This document shows positions 11,945-51,566 of a stretch of 64,000 bases of DNA, in pieces. Source of the stretch: an uncultured Dictyoglomota bacterium. Lineage in GTDB: Bacteria > Dictyoglomota > Dictyoglomia > Dictyoglomales > Dictyoglomaceae. The stretch is from contig CAZZIO010000040.1 in assembly GCA_964654465.1 (NCBI GenBank), positions 1 to 64,000 of the forward strand, in the 5' to 3' direction. Under the pieces are notes generated by a model. That model made no database searches and had not been told where the DNA came from. It saw only the letters and a program-made list of their open reading frames with translations. How positions within the stretch are numbered: position 1 is the stretch's first letter; each line of letters opens with the position of its first letter. The position numbers and the translations under genes are program-made.

Positions 11945-12034
11945 GCCGAAGTGGCGGAATTGGCAGACGCGCCAGACTCAAAATCTGGTGGGTGGGTAAC
12001 ACCCGTGCCGGTTCGACTCCGGCCTTCGGCACCA
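11945..12034 (+). tRNA. tRNA-Leu(CAA)
   Basis: GCCGAAGTGGCGGAATTGGCAGACGC; CCAGA-CT-CAA-AA-TCTGG; long variable arm; CCA end. Confidence 0.96.
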
Positions 12035-20898: not shown

Positions 20899-20975
20899 TG
20901 GTCGGGGCGACTGGACTTGAACCAGCGACCTCCTACTCCCGAAGCAGGCGCGCTAGCCAACTGCGCTACGCCCCG
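20899..20975 (-). tRNA. tRNA-Pro(CGG)
   Basis: CGGGGCGTAGCGCAG; CCTGC-TT-CGG-GA-GTAGG; CCA end. Confidence 0.95.
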
Positions 20976-20985
20976 CATAATAAGA

Positions 20986-21060
20986 TGGTCGGGGCGACTG
21001 GACTCGAACCAGCGACCTTCCGCACCCCAAACGGACGCGCTTCCCCTGCGCTACGCCCCG
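20986..21060 (-). tRNA. tRNA-Pro(GGG)
   Basis: CGGGGCGTAGCGCAG; TCCGT-TT-GGG-GT-GCGGA; CCA end. Confidence 0.95.
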
Positions 21061-39083: not shown

Positions 39084-40337
39084 TCACATATCTTCTACTT
39101 CTAAGGCAATATCTTTCCTATAATACATATTCTCAAAAAAGATATTTTGGATATTTTTATAAACCTTCTCCCTCGCCTCCTTAAAGGATTTACCTAAACC
39201 TACCACATTTAATACTCTTCCACCAGAAGTAACCAATTTACCATTCCTAAAGGAAGTTCCTGCATGAAAAATTATTGTCTCTTTTGTCTCCTTTACACTA
39301 ATTTCTTTACCGACTTCATACCTTTCTGGATATCCTTTAGATGCAAGTACAACACATACAGCTTTTTTTTCGGAATATTCATACTCATTATATGTTTTGA
39401 TATTTTTACCATCTTTAAGATCCAATAAAGAAAAACCAATAATAGGAAGAATAACTTGAGCCTCTGGGTCTCCAAGTCTAACATTAAATTCTAAAACATA
39501 TGGTTCGTTATTAACCAAAATCAATCCTCCATAAAGAAAACCCTCATATTTTAAATTATTCTTTTCAAGTTCAGATAATAATGGCTTAAATATCAATTTT
39601 AAAGATTTCTCTATTAAACTACTATCAATCCATGGTACAGGAGCAAAAGAGCCCATACCTCCAGTATTAGGACCAGTGTTTCCTTCTCCCACTCTTTTAT
39701 AGTCTTGAGCTGGTGGAAGTACATAGATTTCCCCGTCTTTAATAGCTACAATGAGAGAAAATTCTTTACCTTCAAGGAATTTTTCAATCACTACTCTCCT
39801 TCCAGCTTCTCCTAAAATACCTTCCTTTAATAACTTACCCAAGACTTCTACAGCCTCATTTTGAGAGTTAACAATAAAAACACCTTTACCAGCAGCCAAA
39901 CCATCAGCCTTAATTACTAAAGGATAATGCTCCTTTTCCACGAAACTTTTAGCAGATTCAAAATCATCAAATATCTTAAAATCTGCAGTAGGTATTTTTG
40001 CTTTCTCCATAATTTTCTTAGCAAAAGCCTTGCTTGCCTCTAGCATTGCTAGATTTTTAATTGGTCCCCATATACTTAAACCCTCCTCTAAAAATCTATC
40101 TACAATACCCATAGAAAGAGGCATTTCAGGTCCTACAATAGTCCAATCAATTCTATTTTCTTTAGCAAAACTTACAATTTCATTTATATTTTCAGATTTT
40201 ATAGGTACGCATTCCGCAAAACTACTGATACCAGCATTCCCAGGAAGAGCATAAATTTTTTCAACCCTTTTATCTTGGGATAATTTCCAACATATAGCAT
40301 GCTCTCTCCCACCACTTCCAATAACCATCACTTTCAT
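39084..40337 (-). CDS. purD: Phosphoribosylamine--glycine ligase
   Basis: GSGGREHA, KADGLAAGKGV, GPNTGGMG, EFNVRLGDPE. Confidence 0.96.
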   Translation of the reverse strand: MKVMVIGSGGREHAICWKLSQDKRVEKIYALPGNAGISSFAECVPIKSENINEIVSFAKENRIDWTIVGPEMPLSMGIVDRFLEEGLSIWGPIKNLAMLEASKAFAKKIMEKAKIPTADFKIFDDFESAKSFVEKEHYPLVIKADGLAAGKGVFIVNSQNEAVEVLGKLLKEGILGEAGRRVVIEKFLEGKEFSLIVAIKDGEIYVLPPAQDYKRVGEGNTGPNTGGMGSFAPVPWIDSSLIEKSLKLIFKPLLSELEKNNLKYEGFLYGGLILVNNEPYVLEFNVRLGDPEAQVILPIIGFSLLDLKDGKNIKTYNEYEYSEKKAVCVVLASKGYPERYEVGKEISVKETKETIIFHAGTSFRNGKLVTSGGRVLNVVGLGKSFKEAREKVYKNIQNIFFENMYYRKDIALEVEDM

Positions 40338-40963
40338 ATATTCTCAGCCCCCTTCTTCTTAAATACTACTCTTCTTCCTATTATCTTGTATTCTTCGGTT
40401 AGAATTTTTTTGACAGATTCTACTATTAACTTATGTTCTTCCTGCAATATTCTTTCAGCCAAAGTCTCTGGAGTATCATCATCATAGACAGGTACTGCTC
40501 TCTGACCTATTATTGGACCTGAATCTATACCCTCATCCACAAAATGAACAGTACATCCGCTTATTTTCACTCCATATTCCAATGCCTTTTTTTGAGCTTC
40601 CAATCCTGGAAAGGAGGGAAGAAGAGATGGATGGATATTAATAATTTTCCATGGAAAAGCATCAAGAAGGGTTTTACCTATAATCTTCATATATCCCGCC
40701 AATACTACTAAATCTACTTTATATTCAAGAAGAATTTCTCTTATTTTTTCCTCATATTCCCTTTTGGATCTGTAATCTTCTCTTTTTACAACATAAACGG
40801 GAATATTCTCCTTTTTTGCCCTCTCAATAGCATAAGCTTCTCTTTTATTACTAATAACAACTACTACCTTCGCTGGATAATCATCTTTTTTTGAAGCATC
40901 AATAAGAGCTTGTAAGTTTGAACCCCTACCTGAGACTAGAACTCCAAGTCTTTTCTTTTCCAT
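40334..40963 (-). CDS. purN: Phosphoribosylglycinamide formyltransferase
   Basis: SGRGSNLQA, NIHPSLLP, GCTVHFVDEGIDSG. Confidence 0.96.
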   Translation of the reverse strand: MEKKRLGVLVSGRGSNLQALIDASKKDDYPAKVVVVISNKREAYAIERAKKENIPVYVVKREDYRSKREYEEKIREILLEYKVDLVVLAGYMKIIGKTLLDAFPWKIINIHPSLLPSFPGLEAQKKALEYGVKISGCTVHFVDEGIDSGPIIGQRAVPVYDDDTPETLAERILQEEHKLIVESVKKILTEEYKIIGRRVVFKKKGAENI

Positions 40964-42021
40964 TCAATTTTTACGCCACCTTTCCCAGATTTTAATGATC
41001 CTATAATATAGCTCTTTTCTCCCATAGAATCTAAATCTTCCAATATCTTTTCTTCATTATCAGAAACCACAAGAATTAAGCCAATCCCCATATTGAAAAC
41101 TCTAAAAGCCTCCTTTATACTTATATTCCCTTTCTTTATAAAAAATTTAAATATCCATGGAATTTCCCAAGAAGATTCAACAATAGCGGTTAAATTATCT
41201 GGAATAATTCTTGGTAGATTACCCACAATTCCCCCACCCGTTATATGAGCAATGCCAAGAATATTTTCTCGATATCTCTCTAAGAGAGGCAAAATTTTAG
41301 GGGAATATATTTTCGTCGGTCTTAATAACTCCTCTAACAGATTATGTCCGTCTATATCTTTCTTCAAAGATATTTTCTTCTTTCTCAAAATATACCTTAT
41401 TAAAGAATAACCATTACTATGAAATCCGGAAGATGTGACCCCAATTAAAATATTACCATCCTTCATTTTATCTTTTTTAGGAAGCAAATTATCTTTTTCT
41501 ACAATTCCAAGTACAAAACCTACCAAATCAATCTCCTTACCCCTATATATACCCGGCATTTCAGCAGTTTCTCCACCAACCAAACTACAATTTGCTTCCT
41601 TGCAAGCTAAAGAAATACTCTTCAAAATTTCTTTATAGACATCTGGATCAATTTTTGATCCACCAAAATAATCTAAAAAGGCTAAAGGCTTACCGCCAGA
41701 GGTTAGAATATCATTAACATTCATAGCTACTAAATCAAAACCTATACCTGAAAACTTACGATATTTAACTGCAAGACTCAACTTAGTTCCCACTCCGTCA
41801 GTACTAAGTAAGAATAAAGGATTCTTAAATAGCTTAAAATCCAATTCTAAAATACTGGAAAAACCGTTCCAATAAGGTAATACATATGCCTGATGGGTAG
41901 ATTCAATATCCTTTCTAACCTCTTGTAATGCTCTTTCTACCTTAGAAATATTAACACCACTTAGACTATAAGTAATTTTTTTTCTTTTTTTACTATTTTT
42001 CTTCCAAAACATTCTCCACAA
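40936..42021 (-). CDS. purM: AIR synthetase
   Basis: TDGVGTK, GGETAEMPG, SSGFHSNGYSL, HITGGG, FNMGIG; exact start uncertain. Confidence 0.94.
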   Translation of the reverse strand: MWRMFWKKNSKKRKKITYSLSGVNISKVERALQEVRKDIESTHQAYVLPYWNGFSSILELDFKLFKNPLFLLSTDGVGTKLSLAVKYRKFSGIGFDLVAMNVNDILTSGGKPLAFLDYFGGSKIDPDVYKEILKSISLACKEANCSLVGGETAEMPGIYRGKEIDLVGFVLGIVEKDNLLPKKDKMKDGNILIGVTSSGFHSNGYSLIRYILRKKKISLKKDIDGHNLLEELLRPTKIYSPKILPLLERYRENILGIAHITGGGIVGNLPRIIPDNLTAIVESSWEIPWIFKFFIKKGNISIKEAFRVFNMGIGLILVVSDNEEKILEDLDSMGEKSYIIGSLKSGKGGVKIEWKRKDLEF

Positions 42022-43352
42022 TAACCCCTTTCTGGAAGTATACTAACTAAACCCTCCATACTTAAAAAAGCAACAGAATCAAAACCTAAAAGTCTGGCAA
42101 TCTCCTCAGGAGAGTAATGATAACTTATTAATTCTTTTGTATTAGGTATATCTACTCCATAATGGCAAGGAGAAATAAGGGGAGGTGAAGAAAGTCTAAG
42201 GTGTACTTCTTTAGCACCTTCTTCCCTAAATTTCTCAGCAAGGATTTTGGCAGTAGTACCTCTCACCAAAGAATCATCTACCAATACTATTTTTTTTCCT
42301 TTAATTAAATCGCTAACAAATAAAAATTTCATTCTTACTGACAATTCTCTTTCCTTTTGCCTTGGCTGTATAAATGTTCTGCCTACATAATGACTTCTCA
42401 TGAGAAGCATCTGTAGAGGTATACCTGACTCCTCACTATACCCAATAGCAGCAGGAATACCTGAATCAGGAACAGGAACAACCCAATCTGCAGATACAGG
42501 AACTTCTTTTGCTAATATTCTTCCCATTTGTTTTCTATAATAATAAACCGTCCTATCATCATAAAGACTATCTGGCCTCGAAAAATATATAAATTCAAAC
42601 AAGCAAAATCTGGAGGGTCTATCTTGAAATGATCTATAATTAAAAACATTTCCATCTTTACTGAAAAAAACCCATTCACCAGGATTCAATTCTTTAATTT
42701 CTATTATAGGTAAATCTTTTAAAGCTGATGTCTCAGATGCAAAAATAACTCCTCCATCTTGGAGCCTTCCCATAAAAAGTGGTCTAAATCCTGATGGATC
42801 TCTGATTGCATAAACACCTTCGTAGGTTCCAACTATTAGAGAGTAACTTCCTTCAACTTGATTAAGAGCCTCTTCAAGCCTTTCTTGTAAACTTTGCTTT
42901 TTTGATTTAGCTGTTAAATGTAATATAACTTCAGTATCTGAATCACTTTGAAATATTATCCCTTCTTTTTCCAAGTTTCTTCTTAAAGAATTAGCATTAG
43001 ATATATGACCATTATGGGCAAGAGCCATATAACCATACCTAGGAAGATTCACTACAAAGGGCTGAATACTTTGAGGTGATTTCTTACCAGAAGTAGAATA
43101 TCTAACATGTCCAACAGCAATTTTTCCCTTTAAGTTTTTAAGAGATAATTCATCAAAAACTTGAGAAACAAGACCAAAATTCTTATGAACATGATATCCT
43201 TCACTGGAAAAAGTTACAATTCCCGCGCTTTCTTGGCCTCTATGTTGTAATTTTAACAATCCTCTATAAGCCAAAAAACTTGCATATCTTTCACTAAAAA
43301 CTATAACTCCTATAACCCCACATTCTTCTTTTAAGGTCATTTGACCTTTCAC
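41961..43352 (-). CDS. purF: Amidophosphoribosyltransferase (propeptide, Fe-S type)
   Basis: EECG processing site, QHRGQE, VDDSLVRGTT; Cys in FCLFE, PCHYG, YCGEC. Confidence 0.96.
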   Translation of the reverse strand: MKGQMTLKEECGVIGVIVFSERYASFLAYRGLLKLQHRGQESAGIVTFSSEGYHVHKNFGLVSQVFDELSLKNLKGKIAVGHVRYSTSGKKSPQSIQPFVVNLPRYGYMALAHNGHISNANSLRRNLEKEGIIFQSDSDTEVILHLTAKSKKQSLQERLEEALNQVEGSYSLIVGTYEGVYAIRDPSGFRPLFMGRLQDGGVIFASETSALKDLPIIEIKELNPGEWVFFSKDGNVFNYRSFQDRPSRFCLFEFIYFSRPDSLYDDRTVYYYRKQMGRILAKEVPVSADWVVPVPDSGIPAAIGYSEESGIPLQMLLMRSHYVGRTFIQPRQKERELSVRMKFLFVSDLIKGKKIVLVDDSLVRGTTAKILAEKFREEGAKEVHLRLSSPPLISPCHYGVDIPNTKELISYHYSPEEIARLLGFDSVAFLSMEGLVSILPERGYCGECFGRKIVKKEKKLLIV

Positions 43353-43358
43353 CTTCTT

Positions 43359-45479
43359 TCAGAAAAGGGTCTTTATGTCTAATTCAAGAAAAGGTCTAAC
43401 TATAAATTTATCTGGAATTACTTTACCTATTTTTTGTACATTTAAGTTATATTTCTCTGCATATTTTAAAAACATAGTTTCTTTTTCTCTTGATACCTCC
43501 GCAATTAAAATAGAACCTTCACCAAAAAGCATTTCAGCTTTATCTTCTCTTGGGAGATTTACATACAATCCTTTATTTCCCCATATCGATAGTTCTAACA
43601 AAGAAGCCAACATTCCCCCCTCACTTACATCATGTAAAGAAAGAATAATTTTTTCCAACCTTATTTCCTCTAAAAAATATTTTAATTTTCTATCCCAAAT
43701 TAAATCTACATATGGGGGCTCACCTTCTATAACCCCATAAAGATCTTTCATAAATCTTGATCCATCTAAAGTTAATCTTGAAAAATCACCTATCACATAT
43801 ATAGGATTTTCATATTCTTTTAATCCCGGTGTTATTAAATATGAAAGATCCTCAATAATTCCAACCATACCAATAATAGGAGTAGGGAAAATTTTGTTAT
43901 CACCTTGACCATTATAAAAACTAACATTTCCACTTACTATAGGTATTTCCAATATTCTTGATGCCAAATTAATACCCTTTACTACTTCTTTAAATTGATA
44001 GAAAACATCCGGTTCATCGGGATCCCCAAAATTCAATCCATCAGTTATAGCTAATGGTTTGCCACCAACACAAAGAATGTTTCTACAGGCCTCTGCTACA
44101 GCATACATAGCCCCTTGTTTAGGATTCAAATAACAATATCTACCATTCCCATCTGTAACAATAGCAATACCCTTATTTGTATTTTTAATTCTCAAAACAG
44201 CAGCATCACCAAATCCAGGTGGTAAAACTGTATTTGTTTGCACGGAATAATCATACTGGGTATAGATTTTTTCCTTAGTTTTTATATCTTGAATTAAAAT
44301 CTCTATATATTTTTCCACATCTTCATTGGTGACTGTTACTACGTTTTCTTTCCTTTCCTTCTTGGGCCCCATTGATGGTGGATCAAATATAAGAGAACCA
44401 TCCACTAAAAGCTCAGTAGGTAGATCAACAACCTTTACTCCATTAAAATAAGCTATAAATCTTTCTTCTTTAATTACCTCTCCTATAACTTCTGCTTCAA
44501 GATCCCATTTTTTAAACACTTCAATAATATCCTTTACTTTATCTGGTCTAACTACAAAAAGCATTCTCTCTTGAGATTCCGATAACAATATTTCTTCTGG
44601 TGTCATATTTTCCTCTCTTTGAGGAACTTTATCAAGATAAACTTTTACTCCACTTCTTCCTCTACGTGCAGACTCTGATAAGGCACTCACAAGACCTGCA
44701 GCACCTAAATCTTGAATACCTATAACACCATCCTTAGCTGCAGCCTCTAAAGTTGCCTCAATAAGAAGCTTACCCAAGAAGGGATCCCCTACTTGAACTG
44801 ATGGTTTCTTTTTGTGAGTTTCATCATCAAGCTTCTCTGAAGCAAAACTTGCTCCTTGAAGACCATCCCTACCCGTTCTTGCGCCAACAAGTACTAGAAG
44901 ATTACCTTCACCTTCAGCTTTTCCTCGATAAGATTTTTGATTTGGAGATAATAATCCTAAACACATAACATTTACTAAGGGATTTGATGAATAACATTCA
45001 TCAAATACTATCTCTCCTCCCACAACAGGTACTCCAATACAATTACCATAAAAACTTATACCACTTACTACTCCCTCAAAAAGATACTTATTTTTTGGTT
45101 TATCAATTGAACCAAATCTTAATGAATCAAGTAGAGCAATAGGCCTTGCTCCAAGAGCCAATATATCCCTTACAATTCCTCCAACTCCTGTAGCAGCTCC
45201 TTGAAATGGTTCAACTGCTGAAGGATGATTATGGCTTTCTATCTTGAACACTATTTTATATCCATCTCCTAGATCTACAATTCCTGCATTCTCGCCTGGA
45301 CCTTGTTCTACCCACTCTGCTTTTGAATAAAAATCCTTTAGATATTTCCTTGAGTGTTTATAACTACAATGTTCAGACCATATTACAGATATAACAGACC
45401 ATTCTATATCATTTGGCTCTCTACCAAGCAATTCTCTTGCATGTTTTATTTCTTCTTCCTTAAGCCCAAAAATTCCCAT
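43359..45479 (-). CDS. purL: FGAM synthase large subunit (small-type PurL)
   Basis: WSEHCSYK, ESHNHPS, DLGAAGL, SESQERM. Confidence 0.96.
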   Translation of the reverse strand: MGIFGLKEEEIKHARELLGREPNDIEWSVISVIWSEHCSYKHSRKYLKDFYSKAEWVEQGPGENAGIVDLGDGYKIVFKIESHNHPSAVEPFQGAATGVGGIVRDILALGARPIALLDSLRFGSIDKPKNKYLFEGVVSGISFYGNCIGVPVVGGEIVFDECYSSNPLVNVMCLGLLSPNQKSYRGKAEGEGNLLVLVGARTGRDGLQGASFASEKLDDETHKKKPSVQVGDPFLGKLLIEATLEAAAKDGVIGIQDLGAAGLVSALSESARRGRSGVKVYLDKVPQREENMTPEEILLSESQERMLFVVRPDKVKDIIEVFKKWDLEAEVIGEVIKEERFIAYFNGVKVVDLPTELLVDGSLIFDPPSMGPKKERKENVVTVTNEDVEKYIEILIQDIKTKEKIYTQYDYSVQTNTVLPPGFGDAAVLRIKNTNKGIAIVTDGNGRYCYLNPKQGAMYAVAEACRNILCVGGKPLAITDGLNFGDPDEPDVFYQFKEVVKGINLASRILEIPIVSGNVSFYNGQGDNKIFPTPIIGMVGIIEDLSYLITPGLKEYENPIYVIGDFSRLTLDGSRFMKDLYGVIEGEPPYVDLIWDRKLKYFLEEIRLEKIILSLHDVSEGGMLASLLELSIWGNKGLYVNLPREDKAEMLFGEGSILIAEVSREKETMFLKYAEKYNLNVQKIGKVIPDKFIVRPFLELDIKTLF

Positions 45480-45491
45480 GATTACACCCCT

Positions 45492-46145
45492 TTATTTTAG
45501 AAATGATAAGAACAGATTAATCCCATCAGAGCTTCCCAAAATATCTTCTACTGCTCTTTCAGGATGAGGCATCATACCCATTACATTACCCTTTTTATTA
45601 ATAATTCCAGCAATATTATCAATTGAACCATTTGGATTTTCATATTCATATTTAAGTACTATTTGATTGTTCTCCTTCAGATCTTCTAATCCCTTTTCTG
45701 ATATATAATATCTACCTTCTTTATGGGCTATAGGTATCTTAATAACCTGATTAACTAAATACCTATTCAAGAAGATATTTTGATTATTCAATACTCTTAT
45801 AAAAACAGGTTTACATATAAAAGTATTGGTAACATTTGGTAACATAGCTCCAGGTAAAAGACCTGCCTCTAAAAGTATCTGGAACCCATTACATATACCT
45901 AGCACATATCCACCTTTATTTGCAAAATCTATTACCTCATTCATGATAGGAGAAAATCTTGCAATAGAACCAGCTCTCAAATAGTCTCCATAAGAAAATC
46001 CTCCAGGGAGTATTACCATATCCACCTCTTGAAGATCATGATCTTTGTGCCAGAGAAAAACTGGGTCATGTCCTGTAATCTTTAAAGCATAAAAGGTATC
46101 CATATCACAATTTGTGCCTGGAAATACCACTACTCCTACCCTCAT
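45492..46145 (-). CDS. purQ: FGAM synthase glutaminase subunit
   Basis: [31 protein letters not shown]. Confidence 0.96.
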
Positions 46146-46396
46146 TCTCTTTCCACCCTTATTGAAAAATCTTCTGTAACTGGATTAACAAGTACAATTT
46201 CACTCATTTTTCTAACTTTTTCCATCACTTCCTCTTCAGAATTCCCCATCAGTTTAATTTTAAGGACCTTTCCAACCCTCACATCTTTTACTTCTTCAAA
46301 GTCTAAGGAATGAAGAGCATTTCTAATAGTTTTACCTTGAGGATCAAAGATCCCCTCTTTTAAAAAGATCTCTAATATCACTGTCCATTCTTTCAC
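46142..46396 (-). CDS. purS: FGAM synthase PurS subunit
   Basis: DPQG, VRVGK, LVNPVTE. Confidence 0.93.
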
Positions 46397-47700
46397 TTTA
46401 ATTCCTCCTTAACTCCAGATCTCTGAAATATAAAATCTATATTTTTAAGGAATACTTGCGGAGAAAAACAACTTTCTATCTCTTCCTTAGAAAGTTTTTC
46501 TGTAACTCTCTTATCTTCTAAAACTACCTCTAAAAAATCTCTTTTTTCATTGATAGCCTTAAATGCATCCTCTTGAATCCATGAATAAGCAATATCCCTT
46601 AAAACCCCTTTTTGGGTAAGAGCTAATAATAAGTTTTGAGAATAAAATATTCTATAATTAGTATTCATGTTCTCTAGAATATTCTCTTCATTAACTTTTA
46701 AATCTTTAACTATCTCATAAGTTAGATTAAGTATATAATCAGTGAGGGTAGTAGCATCTGGAAATATTACTCTTTCTACAGAAGAATGACTAATATCTCT
46801 CTCATGCCATAAAGGAATGTTTTCAAAAGCAGAATTCATATATGACCTTATTACTCTTGACAGTCCACAAATTCTTTCAGAAAGAATAGGATTTCTTTTA
46901 TGAGGCATAGCTGACGATCCCTTTTGCCTCTCCCTAAAAGGTTCTTCCAATTCTCCTACTTCCGTTCTTTGGAGATGTCTAATTTCAAGAGCAATTCGTT
47001 CACAAGACGAAGCTATCATTCCTAAAACATAAATTACTTCTGCATGTCTATCTCTTGGAATAATTTGTGTAGCAACTGGTTCAGGTTCTAATCCTAAAAT
47101 CTTACATGCCAATTCTTCTACTTCAGGTGACAAATGACTTAATGTACCAACAACACCTGAAAATTTTCCATATCTTATGTTTTCTCTTGCCTTTCTCAAC
47201 CTCTCTAAATTTCTTTTAAGTTCTGACCACCATCCCAAAAACTTAAAACCTAAGGTGATTGGTTCTGCATGCATTCCATGAGTTCTTCCCATCATAGGCA
47301 AATCTTTGTATTGAATTGCTTTTTTTGCTATTTCATCTAACAATTTTAAGAGATCTGATTCTATATAATTAAGAGCTTCTAAAATTTGTAAAGAAAAAGC
47401 AGTATCCATAACATCTGATGATGTAAGTCCTTGATGGATGTATTCAGATCCTTCTCCTACATATTGAGCCACATTAGTTAAAAATGCTATCATCTCATGA
47501 TTATTAATCTTTTCTATCTCCTTAATTTCTTCGACTTTAAATCTTGCTTTCTTTTTTATTTTTTCAAATGCTTCACTTGGGATCTCTCCTAATTTAGCTC
47601 TTGCTTCTAATACTGCCTCTTCTACCTTCCACCAAAGAGAATATCTTTTCTCATCAGACCAAACTTCTCTTAATTCCTTTCTACTATATCTTTCTAACAC
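46393..47700 (-). CDS. purB: Adenylosuccinate lyase
   Basis: TSSD, GRTHG, GSSAMPHKRNP, ERDISHS; start reset to GTG 47700 after AAGGAGGT. Confidence 0.96.
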   Translation of the reverse strand: MLERYSRKELREVWSDEKRYSLWWKVEEAVLEARAKLGEIPSEAFEKIKKKARFKVEEIKEIEKINNHEMIAFLTNVAQYVGEGSEYIHQGLTSSDVMDTAFSLQILEALNYIESDLLKLLDEIAKKAIQYKDLPMMGRTHGMHAEPITLGFKFLGWWSELKRNLERLRKARENIRYGKFSGVVGTLSHLSPEVEELACKILGLEPEPVATQIIPRDRHAEVIYVLGMIASSCERIALEIRHLQRTEVGELEEPFRERQKGSSAMPHKRNPILSERICGLSRVIRSYMNSAFENIPLWHERDISHSSVERVIFPDATTLTDYILNLTYEIVKDLKVNEENILENMNTNYRIFYSQNLLLALTQKGVLRDIAYSWIQEDAFKAINEKRDFLEVVLEDKRVTEKLSKEEIESCFSPQVFLKNIDFIFQRSGVKEELK

Positions 47701-47716
47701 TTTTTTTACCTCCTTT

Positions 47717-47778
47717 AAAAGCAAAAAGCCCAAGCTCATAGGTTCTCCTTACGAGGGAACCTACCCGCCTGGGCTTTT
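47717..47778 (-). terminator. Riboswitch expression-platform terminator
   Basis: AAAAGCCCAGGC...GCTTGGGCTTTT outer stem enclosing TAGGTTC/GAACCTA, then TTTTTGCTTTT. Confidence 0.8.
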
Positions 47779-47857
47779 ATCCCTTCGGTGTAGCAAGATC
47801 AACAATCTTGCCAGCTCCGCTTGGATCTTTAGACCCTAAGGAGCTCTTCCGCTCGTA
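47750..47857 (-). ncRNA. ykkC-type riboswitch aptamer, PRPP-sensing subtype likely
   Basis: TAGGGT in P1, P2 GGCAAGAT/ATCTTGCT, and the hallmark ACACCG..GGGATAAAAGCCCAGGCGG; sits upstream of pur genes. Confidence 0.85.
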
Positions 47858-47920
47858 GTCAGGCAATTTACGGTTGCCTGGTAGAAACTCCCGAGCCATA
47901 TTCTCGGGATTATACGAAGC
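47851..47920 (-). ncRNA. Purine (guanine-sensing) riboswitch aptamer
   Basis: TCGTATAA-TCCCGAG-AATATGG-CTCGGGA-GTTTCTAC-CAGGCAA-CCGTAAA-TTGCCTG-ACTACGA; specificity base is C. Confidence 0.93.
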
Positions 47921-47928
47921 TTAAGTAG

Positions 47929-49229
<1,301 letters not shown>

Positions 49230-49368: not shown

Positions 49369-49956
49369 ATGGAGTACTTGGCACCCAGCTGGGAAGAAAT
49401 TTATAATCTATGTCTTGATCTTGCAGATGAGATTAATAAGAATAAGTTTAATCCTGAAGTTATAGTTGGGATTGCACGAGGAGGATGGATTCCTGCAAGA
49501 ATACTATCTGATCTTCTTGGAAACTCTTATACAGCTAATCTTAAAATTGATTTTTATAGAGGGGTTGGAGAAACTAAAGAAAGACCAATTATAACTCAAA
49601 CTATCTCAACAATTGTTGAAGGGAAAAAAGTATTAATAGCTGACGATGTGGCAGATAGTGGAAAAAGCTTAAAGGTTGCTAAAGAACACTTAGAACAATG
49701 TGGGGCAACTCAAGTAAAAATTGCTACCATATATTACAAACCCTGGTCTATCATTAAACCCGATTTTTACATAAAAGAAACAGAAGCATGGATAATCTTC
49801 CCTTGGGAAAGAAAAGAATTTGTATCTAAAATGATAGAAAGCTTAAGAGCGAAAGGACTTAGACATGATGAAATAATGAAAGAAATAGAAAAAAGTGGAA
49901 TTCCTAAGGATCTAATATTAAGATTTGTAAATGATTTAATAGGAGAAGACTCATGA
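49369..49956 (+). CDS. Type I phosphoribosyltransferase (purine-salvage-like)
   Basis: IARGG, PRPP loop VLIADDVADSGKS, WIIFPWE. Confidence 0.85.
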   Translation: MEYLAPSWEEIYNLCLDLADEINKNKFNPEVIVGIARGGWIPARILSDLLGNSYTANLKIDFYRGVGETKERPIITQTISTIVEGKKVLIADDVADSGKSLKVAKEHLEQCGATQVKIATIYYKPWSIIKPDFYIKETEAWIIFPWERKEFVSKMIESLRAKGLRHDEIMKEIEKSGIPKDLILRFVNDLIGEDS

Positions 49957-51566
49957 AAAATGCCATTTCAGCAGGTGGAGTAATTATTAATCCTATCAAC
50001 AAAAAAGTTTTTATCCTAAAAAGAAAAAATTCTAATTGGGTTCTCCCTAAGGGACATATTGAAAAAGGAGAATCTCCAGAAGAAGCAGCTATAAGAGAGG
50101 TAAAAGAAGAAACAAATTTGAATGTGAAAATTATAGATTTTATAGGAAAGACCCACTATATTGCTCCCGCTACAGAAAGACATCCTGAAGAGGACAAAAC
50201 AGTATTATGGTTTCTTATGGAATCCTATGACTCTAATAATGTTAAAATCGAGGAAGATGTATTCTCAGATGGAAGATTCTTGTATTTTAATGATGCATAT
50301 AATCTTCTTACCTTCGAGCAAGAAAAAGAAATATTGAGAAGAGGATATGAATTATATATGCTTCAAAAAGGCGAAAAAAAACTTCATGTTTTAATGTTAA
50401 GCTGGGAATATCCACCAAGAATTGTAGGCGGACTCAGTAGACATGTGAAAGATCTCAGTGATGCTTTAGCAGAGAAATATACTAAAGTTTCCATCGTAAC
50501 ATGTGGTACAAAAGATGTCCCTTGGGAAGAGCATAAAGAAAATCTCTCTGTTTATAGAGTACCAGAAAAAATAATAGACACCCCCAATTTTATCTCATGG
50601 ATCTACTTTCTCAATATCTCCATGATGATTAAAGCCTTAGAAATAAACAGAACAAATCCCATAGATATCATACATGCTCATGACTGGCTATCTGCTTTTA
50701 CTGGATATGTACTAAAACACTCTCTTAAAAAACCTCTTATATCAACAATTCATGCAACCGAACATGGTAGAAATCAAGGGATATATACTGAAGAACAAAA
50801 ATTTATCCACAATGTGGAATGGTGGCTAACATATGAATCTTGGAAAGTAATTGTATGCAGTAACAATATGAAAGATGAAGTAAAATCTCTTTTTAACTTA
50901 CCGGATGACAAAATAAAAATTATCCCTAACGGTATAAACCCCGAAAACTTAAAAACCACATTAAATTATAATGAAATAAAAAGCAGATATCTTAGTCAAG
51001 ATGAAAAAATGATACTCTTCATTGGTAGAATGCATTATCAAAAGGGAGCGGAGTATCTTTTAAGATCTATACCCTATATTAATAATGATTATCCAAAAGT
51101 TAAATTCATCTTTGTAGGGACAGGGCCACAACTTGATTATTTAATTGAAGAAAGCAAGAATTTAGGTGTCAAAGAAAAAGTTATATTCACAGGCTTTGTA
51201 GATGATAACCTGAGAAATGCTCTACTCCATGCATCTGATATATGTGTTTTTCCCAGTATCTACGAACCCTTTGGGATAGTTGCATTAGAAGCTATGGCTT
51301 TAGGAAAGCCTGTAGTAGCAAGTAGGCTTGGTGGCTTTGCTGAGATAATTGAAGATGGAATAGACGGTATACTTTTTGAACCTAAAAATATATTAGATTT
51401 AGCAAATAAAATAAAAATGCTTTTATACAATGATGAGTTAAAAGAAAATATTGGAAAAATGGCAATGAAAAAAGCTTTGGAAAAATATTCTTGGAAAAGT
51501 ATTGCTGAAGAAACTAAAAAGGTTTACTTTGAGATTTATAGAGAATATCTAAAAACTGATTGGTAA
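49953..51566 (+). CDS. NUDIX hydrolase fused to GT4 glycosyltransferase
   Basis: Nudix box GHIEKGESPEEAAIREVKEET in the N-terminal ~140 aa; then MLSWEYPP..GGL, HAHDW, HATE, YEPFGIVALEAM. Confidence 0.85.
   Translation: MKNAISAGGVIINPINKKVFILKRKNSNWVLPKGHIEKGESPEEAAIREVKEETNLNVKIIDFIGKTHYIAPATERHPEEDKTVLWFLMESYDSNNVKIEEDVFSDGRFLYFNDAYNLLTFEQEKEILRRGYELYMLQKGEKKLHVLMLSWEYPPRIVGGLSRHVKDLSDALAEKYTKVSIVTCGTKDVPWEEHKENLSVYRVPEKIIDTPNFISWIYFLNISMMIKALEINRTNPIDIIHAHDWLSAFTGYVLKHSLKKPLISTIHATEHGRNQGIYTEEQKFIHNVEWWLTYESWKVIVCSNNMKDEVKSLFNLPDDKIKIIPNGINPENLKTTLNYNEIKSRYLSQDEKMILFIGRMHYQKGAEYLLRSIPYINNDYPKVKFIFVGTGPQLDYLIEESKNLGVKEKVIFTGFVDDNLRNALLHASDICVFPSIYEPFGIVALEAMALGKPVVASRLGGFAEIIEDGIDGILFEPKNILDLANKIKMLLYNDELKENIGKMAMKKALEKYSWKSIAEETKKVYFEIYREYLKTDW

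Follow-up and report, generated by a model that had tools for sequence, protein, structure and literature searches.

The leader of the purine synthesis genes in the DNA studied here, a stretch of 64,000 nucleotides (nt) from contig CAZZIO010000040.1 of an uncultured Dictyoglomota bacterium (assembly GCA_964654465.1; hereafter the window), carries a tandem riboswitch on the minus strand. It consists of a guanine-class purine aptamer, a ykkC-fold aptamer of the phosphoribosyl pyrophosphate (PRPP) type and one intrinsic terminator common to both, located ahead of purB. We read the element as a guanine-PRPP tandem acting on this terminator through competition between two helices, P0 and the guanine P1, a reading to which we assign a probability of about 0.86, with both ligands being predicted from sequence. 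The element adds one more member to a class already described, in a phylum new to that class, and its contribution is modest, namely the host range, a very short P1b and a maximal overlap of P0 with P1.

The minus-strand region between the stop codon of the enolase gene eno (open reading frame (ORF) 47940-49226) and purB has a length of 220 bases. A promoter-like site is followed by the purine aptamer, a linker of six bases (47851-47846) between the two P1 stems, the ykkC-fold aptamer, one long hairpin with UUUGCUUUU, a ribosome-binding site (RBS) and a GTG codon, in this order, and the full leader displayed a folding z of -7.4 compared with 200 shuffles. The features are as follows.

47929-47957, minus strand: promoter-like site, TTGAAC (47957-47952), 17-nt spacer, TATAAT (47934-47929), 10 of 12 matches
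47852-47918, minus strand: guanine-class purine aptamer (Rfam RF00167)
47918-47913 with 47857-47852, minus strand: guanine P1, UUCGUA with UACGAG, only 6 base pairs (bp), outermost pair U-G
47909-47903 with 47895-47889, minus strand: guanine P2
47880-47874 with 47866-47860, minus strand: guanine P3
47847-47857, minus strand: shared strand UACGAG-C-GGAA, comprising the guanine P1 3' strand (47857-47852) and the P0 5' strand
47750-47857, minus strand: ykkC subtype-2b (PRPP-type) aptamer, 108 nt including P0
47845-47840 with 47818-47813, minus strand: PRPP-type P1
47836-47832 with 47827-47823, minus strand: PRPP-type P1a/P1b, loop UAAA
47812-47805 with 47799-47792, minus strand: PRPP-type P2
47783-47781 with 47773-47771, minus strand: PRPP-type P3
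C47790 with G47769, minus strand: long-range pair, G47769 being the "G96" position by alignment
47759-47750, minus strand: P0 3' strand
47717-47776, minus strand: intrinsic terminator common to both aptamers, hairpin of -32.8 kcal/mol
47776-47767 with 47735-47726, minus strand: terminator lower stem, AAGCCCAGGC with GCUUGGGCUU
47763-47757 with 47745-47739 and 47756-47755 with 47748-47747, minus strand: terminator upper stems, UAGGUUC and CC, including the P0 strand UUCC
47725-47717, minus strand: U-rich tail of the terminator, UUUGCUUUU
47698-47716, minus strand: RBS AAAGGAGG (47716-47709) and purB start GTG (47700-47698)
39084-47700, minus strand: regulated genes purB, purS, purQ, purL, purF, purM, purN and purD, NCBIfam equivalog matches, all above their cut-offs

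The first aptamer is a guanine-class sensor, with guanine as its predicted ligand. Its match to the Rfam Purine model (47937-47836, minus strand) extends over the full length of the model (positions 1-102) and reached 90.9 bits at a cut-off of 37 (E = 2.4e-15), with every upper-case consensus position intact, so that the complete purine aptamer with specificity base C described in an earlier note on this DNA was recovered as such. The specificity base is C47858, within GACUA; this position, C74 in xpt numbering, holds U in the adenine class, and from the C follows the assignment to the guanine/hypoxanthine class. Among the Dictyoglomaceae relatives, P2 revealed a compensatory A-U/G-C change. 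A search with the Purine model returned this single match in the 1.91-Mb, 99.97%-complete genome, and the tandem is the only purine or ykkC-type riboswitch therein.

The second aptamer is supported as PRPP-type, ykkC subtype 2b, PRPP again being a predicted ligand. At the gathering threshold the Rfam scan reported the Purine half only; the ykkC half came up in E-value mode, where the Guanidine-I family aligned end to end to 47851-47764 with 38.8 bits, short of the required 63 (cut-off; E = 1.3e-5 in the scan of 401 bases and 1.4e-5 against the whole genome). A ykkC-motif aptamer thus stands where the earlier note had placed it, separated by the six-base linker from the first one. That note had also held that a missing covariance-model match would speak against the second aptamer; the match found is sub-cut-off, as in five of seven comparison RNAs of the same kind from other bacteria, among them the Priestia megaterium codA tandem. 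These seven scored 43.8-68.1 bits with Guanidine-I, two of them passing the cut-off. In the window and in the seven comparison loci, which were scanned likewise, neither a PRPP family nor any other ykkC-related family was among the Rfam matches. Since the comparison loci score in this way, PRPP-type RNAs seem to appear in the Rfam copy searched solely as weak Guanidine-I matches, and the deficit in the window results mostly from P1b, with 6 bases for 26 consensus positions. With no PRPP model in this Rfam copy, standard annotation pipelines would label only the guanine half.

To describe the second aptamer by a model of its own kind, the aptamers of nine family members were aligned (alignment A2) and a covariance model, R1, was built with a hand-drawn structure. 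R1 scores the window aptamer at 128.8 bits and 62 RNAs of other bacteria at 53-86 bits. Within the family, P1 and P1b display compensatory changes in five pairs, and the core is invariant across three genera.

The RNAs of other bacteria came from a core-motif scan of 185,579 species genomes, which returned at least 120 stretches; 80 loci were listed, and the counts given here, including those of downstream genes, rest on these 80. Nearly all listed loci belong to the Bacillota, namely Clostridia, Tissierellia, Halanaerobiales, Peptococcaceae, Desulfosporosinus and Bacilli. R1 matched 78 times at E <= 0.01, and the 62 RNAs mentioned above are those at E <= 1e-8. An nhmmer profile of the family's guanine aptamer found such an aptamer 5' of 46 of the 78 matches, and the first downstream ORFs, scanned for 73 of them, were most often purE (24), the large FGAM synthase (14), purD (10) and purC (6). 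At the listed Priestia megaterium locus, with 86.2 bits for Purine, 60.9 bits for Guanidine-I and a cytosine deaminase downstream (codA; row L105), the 3' core ACACCGAAGGGAUAAAAGCCCAGGCGGGUAGGUU agrees with its counterpart in the window in all 33 bases. The nine family sequences and the 62 others were joined in an alignment of 71 sequences, fitted to R1, in which 95.0% of the cells are paired, compared with 79.9% after shuffling and at most 45.3% with the partners slid; changes on both sides were observed for 24 of the 33 pairs. A collection of 80 purB-based loci in other phyla gave just one R1 match at E <= 1 (L025, a Bacillota metagenome-assembled genome (MAG)), so that purB neighbourhoods lend themselves poorly to finding relatives.

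Two singlets stood out by their labels. A MAG of candidate division NPL-UPA2 carries a PRPP-type aptamer ahead of purB (L134:7138-7253), with 58.5 bits for R1, 66.7 bits for Guanidine-I and no Purine match, for which reason Dictyoglomota is probably not the sole host outside the Bacillota. A MAG labelled Sutterella (L103) also revealed a PRPP-type aptamer (58.3 bits), which may be a binning error.

The link between both aptamers is P0. In this helix UACGAG (47857-47852) pairs with CUCGUA (47755-47750) and GGAA (47850-47847) with UUCC (47759-47756), giving 10 bp which, apart from the bulged C47851, are perfectly paired and cover all six bases of the guanine P1 3' strand. CUCGUA (47755-47750) is private to P0 and UUCGUA (47918-47913) to the guanine P1, and as isolated duplexes the two helices have energies of -11.5 (P0) and -4.2 kcal/mol (guanine P1). 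The alternative helix of the earlier note, said to close the second aptamer and to overlap the terminator, was found with exactly these pairs, its 3' strand being enclosed by the terminator. The pairing thus stands as described, but the idea is not new: the helix is P0 as known from the solved PRPP aptamer, and for the Thermoanaerobacter mathranii tandem it was proposed in 2018 that formation of P0 and of the guanine P1 "are mutually exclusive" (PMC6031431; this paper, PMC5912903 and PMC9481103 are cited here for the excerpts consulted). Across the 71 sequences, the inner P0 helix is paired at 99.6% and the outer one at 84.5%; the second inner pair is G-C in 13 and A-U in 55 of them (GG/CC in the window, GA/UC elsewhere), and all six outer pairs change on both sides. 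Among the 35 tandems of other bacteria at the listed loci, the P0 5' strand coincides with the guanine P1 3' strand in 19 and overlaps it, displaced by a few bases, in 16, and at least five of the six outer P0 pairs are kept in 21. Strand sharing, seen in 35 of 35 tandems, therefore characterises the class in general, and the validated megaterium RNA is among its examples.

The single terminator claimed ahead of the purB RBS was located at 47776-47717, and no second one is present between the aptamers. The P0 3' strand lies within it, and the 5' arm takes up the P3 3' strand (47773-47771), the S-turn G (G47769) and part of the P0 3' strand, so that the terminator and the folded PRPP aptamer are mutually exclusive. 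The lower stem is kept in all nine family sequences, four of which share one compensatory G-C/A-U pair. A simple terminator scan missed this hairpin because its loop is longer than 8.

On this basis the leader of purB-purSQLF-purMND would be a transcription-attenuating tandem with the guanine aptamer as the OFF input and the PRPP aptamer as the ON input. UACGAG (47857-47852) can pair backwards, in the guanine P1, or forwards, in the outer half of P0. Guanine would lock P1 and leave P0 with GGAA/UUCC only, whereby the PRPP aptamer would be weakened, the terminator would form and the operon would be off. PRPP would stabilise P0 and P3, strip P1 from the guanine aptamer and block the terminator, with read-through even in the presence of guanine. 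With neither ligand, the 10-bp P0 would beat the 6-bp P1 and read-through would be favoured, which is the weakest step of the scheme. The sum of these steps would be an IMPLY-like gate, off only with guanine and without PRPP. Guanine and PRPP binding as well as IMPLY-like termination were shown for the codA tandem of Bacillus (Priestia) megaterium by Sherlock et al. 2018 (PMC5912903). Ligands and truth table are carried over from that validated Bacillus/Priestia megaterium system, and by this analogy the exact IMPLY table is somewhat favoured, with less assurance than the tandem itself.

Several observations weigh against the proposed tandem and its gate. The Guanidine-I score of the second aptamer is sub-cut-off, and P1b is far below its usual length, which may affect PRPP affinity. 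All ten P0 pairs are invariant within the family, so that close relatives lend P0 no covariation support, and the alignment of 71 sequences, owing to its fitting to R1, leans toward the structure. In one genome of the family (G006, genus g3, 99% complete) the element is missing ahead of purB. Nearest-neighbour energies, calculated for 37 C without tertiary or ligand terms, are -78.3 kcal/mol for the terminator fold and -60.2 kcal/mol for the fold with P0 and P3, and whether the minimum-energy folds of transcript pieces contain P1 or P0 depends on their length and on the temperature (37 and 70 C). Since the energies favour the terminator and the folds of partial transcripts flip, the output without ligand is uncertain.

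These energies bear on an alternative made of the same parts with another truth table. Termination would then be the default without PRPP, irrespective of guanine, and the leader would work as a PRPP-ON switch desensitised by guanine, which corresponds roughly to "PRPP AND NOT too much guanine" and not to IMPLY. Speaking for it, the terminator hairpin reaches -32.8 kcal/mol, the terminated fold is better by 18 kcal/mol than the ligand-free fold with P0 and P3, full-length minimum-energy folds contain the terminator at both 37 and 70 C, and a 2022 review, as far as its excerpts go, regards the structural changes underlying the gate as not established (PMC9481103). However, transcriptional switches are kinetic, and the P0 3' strand is made at least 15 bases before the terminator 3' arm; at 70 C a transcript ending at 47740 folds with P0; and the validated megaterium tandem, which has the same layout, reads through without ligands (PMC5912903). 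We therefore consider the PRPP-ON switch rather unlikely and retain the IMPLY-like gate.

A second alternative concerns the PRPP aptamer itself, which could be a decayed relic whose shortened P1b has abolished binding, leaving the guanine aptamer and the terminator to work alone. Its Rfam score lies under those of all seven comparison RNAs, and the span from P1a to P1a is 14 nt compared with a median of 28, a shortness found in only two of 62 other aptamers. On the other hand, these two show that an equally short P1b occurs elsewhere, the core is invariant in three genera with the five compensated pairs in P1 and P1b, and a plain guanine OFF switch needs no roughly 100 conserved bases between P1 and the terminator. 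A relic is accordingly improbable. The description of the element as compact in the earlier note stands for P1b and less so for the whole, since the total aptamer length of 108 nt compares with a median of 117.5 and seven of the 62 others are as short or shorter.

Given a working second aptamer of the ykkC subtype 2, guanosine tetraphosphate (ppGpp), the ligand of subtype 2a, had to be considered. According to Knappenberger et al. 2018 (PMC6031431), PRPP aptamers are told apart from ppGpp aptamers by one guanosine of the S-turn, G96, which pairs with C75, and in the T. mathranii aptamer the exchange G96A shifts specificity about 40,000-fold. The AGG of the window, whose central G had been taken in the earlier note as fitting PRPP and not ppGpp, is A47770 G47769 G47768; its middle G falls into the long-range C-G pair when aligned to the ykkC model, and the equivalent of C47790-G47769 is C-G in 71 of 71 aligned RNAs, bearing out that claim. 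The correspondence to G96 and C75 comes from alignment in a comparison without the T. mathranii sequence.

For negative comparators, five Firmicute genomes were searched with the Guanidine-I model. In a Desulfosporosinus genome (G041) two singlet ykkC subtype-2 RNAs (L215:1501-1597 and L218:1501-1640) were observed ahead of the citramalate synthase gene cimA and of ilvE plus acetolactate synthase, respectively. They read CCCCG--UGGCAAGUU and CCCAAGCGGAAAGUU at the S-turn, both lacking its G, and by context they would be ppGpp-type, published ppGpp contexts being genes for branched-chain amino acids (BCAA), glutamate synthase and natA (PMC5912903). R1 scored them at 33.3 and 16.2 bits, the purE tandem of the same genome (L217) at 71.3 and the megaterium codA tandem at 49.2.

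The T. mathranii aptamer is converted by one G-to-A exchange, and its wild type still binds ppGpp at 91 uM (PMC6031431), which lends some weight to a ppGpp sensor in the window. Against it, G47769 is present and paired to C47790, as in all 71 purine-gene-associated RNAs, whereas the BCAA-associated comparators lack the S-turn G and have 1-2 bases fewer at this place; the genes downstream serve purine synthesis; and the element forms a guanine tandem with a common terminator, whereas ppGpp aptamers pair with T-boxes that keep their own platforms (PMC6031431). Sensing of ppGpp is hence very improbable. A guanidine-I riboswitch, although named by the only Rfam family matched, can practically be dismissed, considering the 38.8 bits at a cut-off of 63, C47819 (in AAGCG) in place of the consensus A, the extra base in ACAC-C-GAAGGG, AGGCGGG instead of GGGAGA, the conserved 5' and 3' tails forming a P0 that guanidine-I does not need (PMC5912903), and purB with further purine genes downstream and no guanidine carboxylase or efflux genes. 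Other PRPP-type rows show C or U at the position of C47819, which by alignment may map to "C49" of subtype 2.

With the PRPP-type assignment retained, the distribution of the tandem in its phylum can be considered. In the genome set the Dictyoglomota comprise 11 species genomes of one family and three genera, and the phylum being this small and confined to one family, the host is not one of the Bacillota. The tandem is located ahead of purB in nine of the 11 genomes and in all three genera, and compensatory changes among these sequences affect P1, P1b and the terminator. One of the two others (G004) is 72% complete and has its purB contig cut. In G006, the purB gene (71% identical) is preceded by an AT-rich leader of about 170 bases (L224:2790-2960, minus strand) displaying neither a guanine nor a PRPP aptamer, and the element appears to have been lost or replaced in that lineage within the family. 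An apparent second guanine aptamer in another genome (G005, L085:1300-1500) is an N-filled scaffold gap with duplicated ends, and a tandem duplication was rejected as an assembly artefact.

In the species collection, a core signature of 30 bases from the family, including the P0 strand UUCC, was found in only five records. Four of them have Dictyoglomaceae or Dictyoglomota in their titles, and the fifth is titled "uncultured bacterium"; the five are probably of the same species as the family genomes and not independent of them. Hot-spring metagenomes of two studies that are not flagged as its possible source contain 0.90-0.96 of the sampled words of the window, one of them matching at 99% or more. 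The G+C content is 32% in the window, 48% in the leader and 61-71% in the tRNAs, and such a pattern is usual in thermophiles. The suggestion of a non-Firmicute thermophile as host agrees with the size of the phylum, the titles of the signature records and the hot-spring matches.

Regarding the origin of the element, no sequence outside the family exceeds 55% identity to purB, and its best matches are spread over many phyla. Among the loci listed, the nearest aptamers outside the family are 75-85% identical over 92 conserved columns (best 0.85), and ranking by identity over these columns revealed no close donor. There is no sign of recent transfer. Together with the P0 signature in Dictyoglomota-titled records and one untitled record, the 75-85% identity of the nearest aptamers and the purB that is not Firmicute-like point to a more far-reaching possibility, which we regard as doubtful and put forward tentatively: the element may represent an old, separately inherited lineage of guanine-PRPP gates outside the Bacillota, a natural extreme of the helix-swap design, or both. 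If so, the class would predate the split of these phyla or would have crossed long ago without its gene, and at 70-80 C a 10-bp P0 taking the entire 3' strand of a minimal 6-bp P1 could alter the truth table or the balance of ligands.

The environmental data also contain relatives of the leader. A relative that is about 94% similar occurs in three metatranscriptome runs, as assembled contigs only; one contig of 1150 nt spans eno, the leader and purB, and those of another run break at 47751 and 47779. Contigs of a hot-spring DNA run break off or become divergent at the margins of the conserved aptamer core (47750-47780 and 47917-47992). One loose contig end reads like the terminator of the sister genus, and the run probably contains several family members together, which the assembly merges at the core.

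Transcription is predicted to start at about 47922, immediately 5' of the guanine P1, from the promoter-like site, which falls in the final codons of eno. A TTGACA-17-TATACT site is located equally far from the guanine P1 in genus g3. The ORF list puts the purB start at ATG 47739 (47737-47739), that is, an ORF caller sets it inside the terminator hairpin. For this reason, and because the column of 47700 is conserved across three genera (GTG in g1, ATG in g2 and g3 in an alignment of nine relatives), we take 47700 as the start, which lies eight bases 3' of the RBS AAAGGAGG. From there purB-purS-purQ-purL-purF-purM-purN-purD are closely packed or overlapping down to 39084, a spacing suggesting one transcript from purB to purD. 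The TTG start listed for purM (40936-42021) overlaps the end of purF (41961-43352) by 61 bases; since the purM profile aligns only from residue 16 onwards, the gene probably starts downstream of the listed codon.

Diverging from eno on the plus strand (49369-51566), a 195-amino-acid (aa) phosphoribosyltransferase-like protein with a weak xanthine phosphoribosyltransferase match (61 bits, below cut-off) is followed by a 537-aa GT4 glycosyltransferase, the two ORFs overlapping by 4 bases, and the Rfam scan found no RNA element ahead of this pair. Seven tRNA genes are located at 202-554 (four clustered), 11945-12031 and 20902-21060.

The class has been described as a Firmicute feature with 257 aptamers in 2018, and 192 tandems were counted in the 2022 tandem riboswitch review (PMC9481103). 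In the literature searched, guanine-PRPP tandems are not mentioned for Dictyoglomi, which one ykkC paper names solely for an unrelated motif, and the supplementary alignments of PMC5912903 might already list Dictyoglomus, including both complete genomes of this genus-level group. With the element, an RNA logic gate with two inputs would reach a thermophilic phylum that is small and deep-branching. With its private strands, its shortness and its hot-spring origin, the RNA would be a convenient substrate for mechanistic and structural tests of the gate, whose structural mechanism is still listed as missing in the excerpts of the 2022 review (PMC9481103).

Compared with known systems, the second aptamer shares the P1-P1a-P1b, P2 and P3 fold and the P3 hairpin GGGAUAAAAGCCC with Guanidine-I (RF00442), which differs by having no P0, by its binding-pocket positions and by its gene context, the window scoring below its cut-off. 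With the ppGpp riboswitch (subtype 2a) it has the scaffold in common, including the P0-type tails and ACACCG, whereas the ppGpp type has no S-turn G and a BCAA context. The Heliobacterium modesticaldum purB singlet (PMC5912903) resembles the window in its downstream gene and in the ON design of P3 against the terminator, but has no guanine input. The xpt-type guanine riboswitch of Bacillus subtilis (RF00167) is identical to the first aptamer at all conserved positions of the core, including the C at the specificity site; in place of the anti-terminator role of the P1 3' strand, the window element closes a whole second aptamer.

The PRPP aptamer of T. mathranii was reportedly also the subject of Peselis and Serganov 2018. 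Its tandem (PMC6031431) has in common with the window a thermophilic host, P0 formed from the 5' and 3' tails, the C75-G96 pair and the predicted exclusion of P0 and P1; it comes from a different phylum, and the correspondence was drawn by inference and not by direct alignment. The megaterium codA tandem has the same layout, being likewise composed of a guanine aptamer, a short linker, a PRPP aptamer and one terminator overlapping P3, with the identical 33-nt 3' core and a P0 5' strand overlapping the guanine P1 3' strand; the spacing of 6 nt in the window falls within the 5-7 nt published for the P1 stems of tandems (PMC5912903). The window differs from it in its host, Dictyoglomaceae instead of Bacillota, in its gene, purB instead of codA, and in its P1b, with 14 nt compared with a much longer insert and 38.8 compared with 60.9 bits for Guanidine-I. 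Whereas the megaterium P0 register is shifted by two bases and hence shares four P1 bases, P0 of the window combines GGAA/UUCC with a perfect 6-bp outer helix over all six of them.

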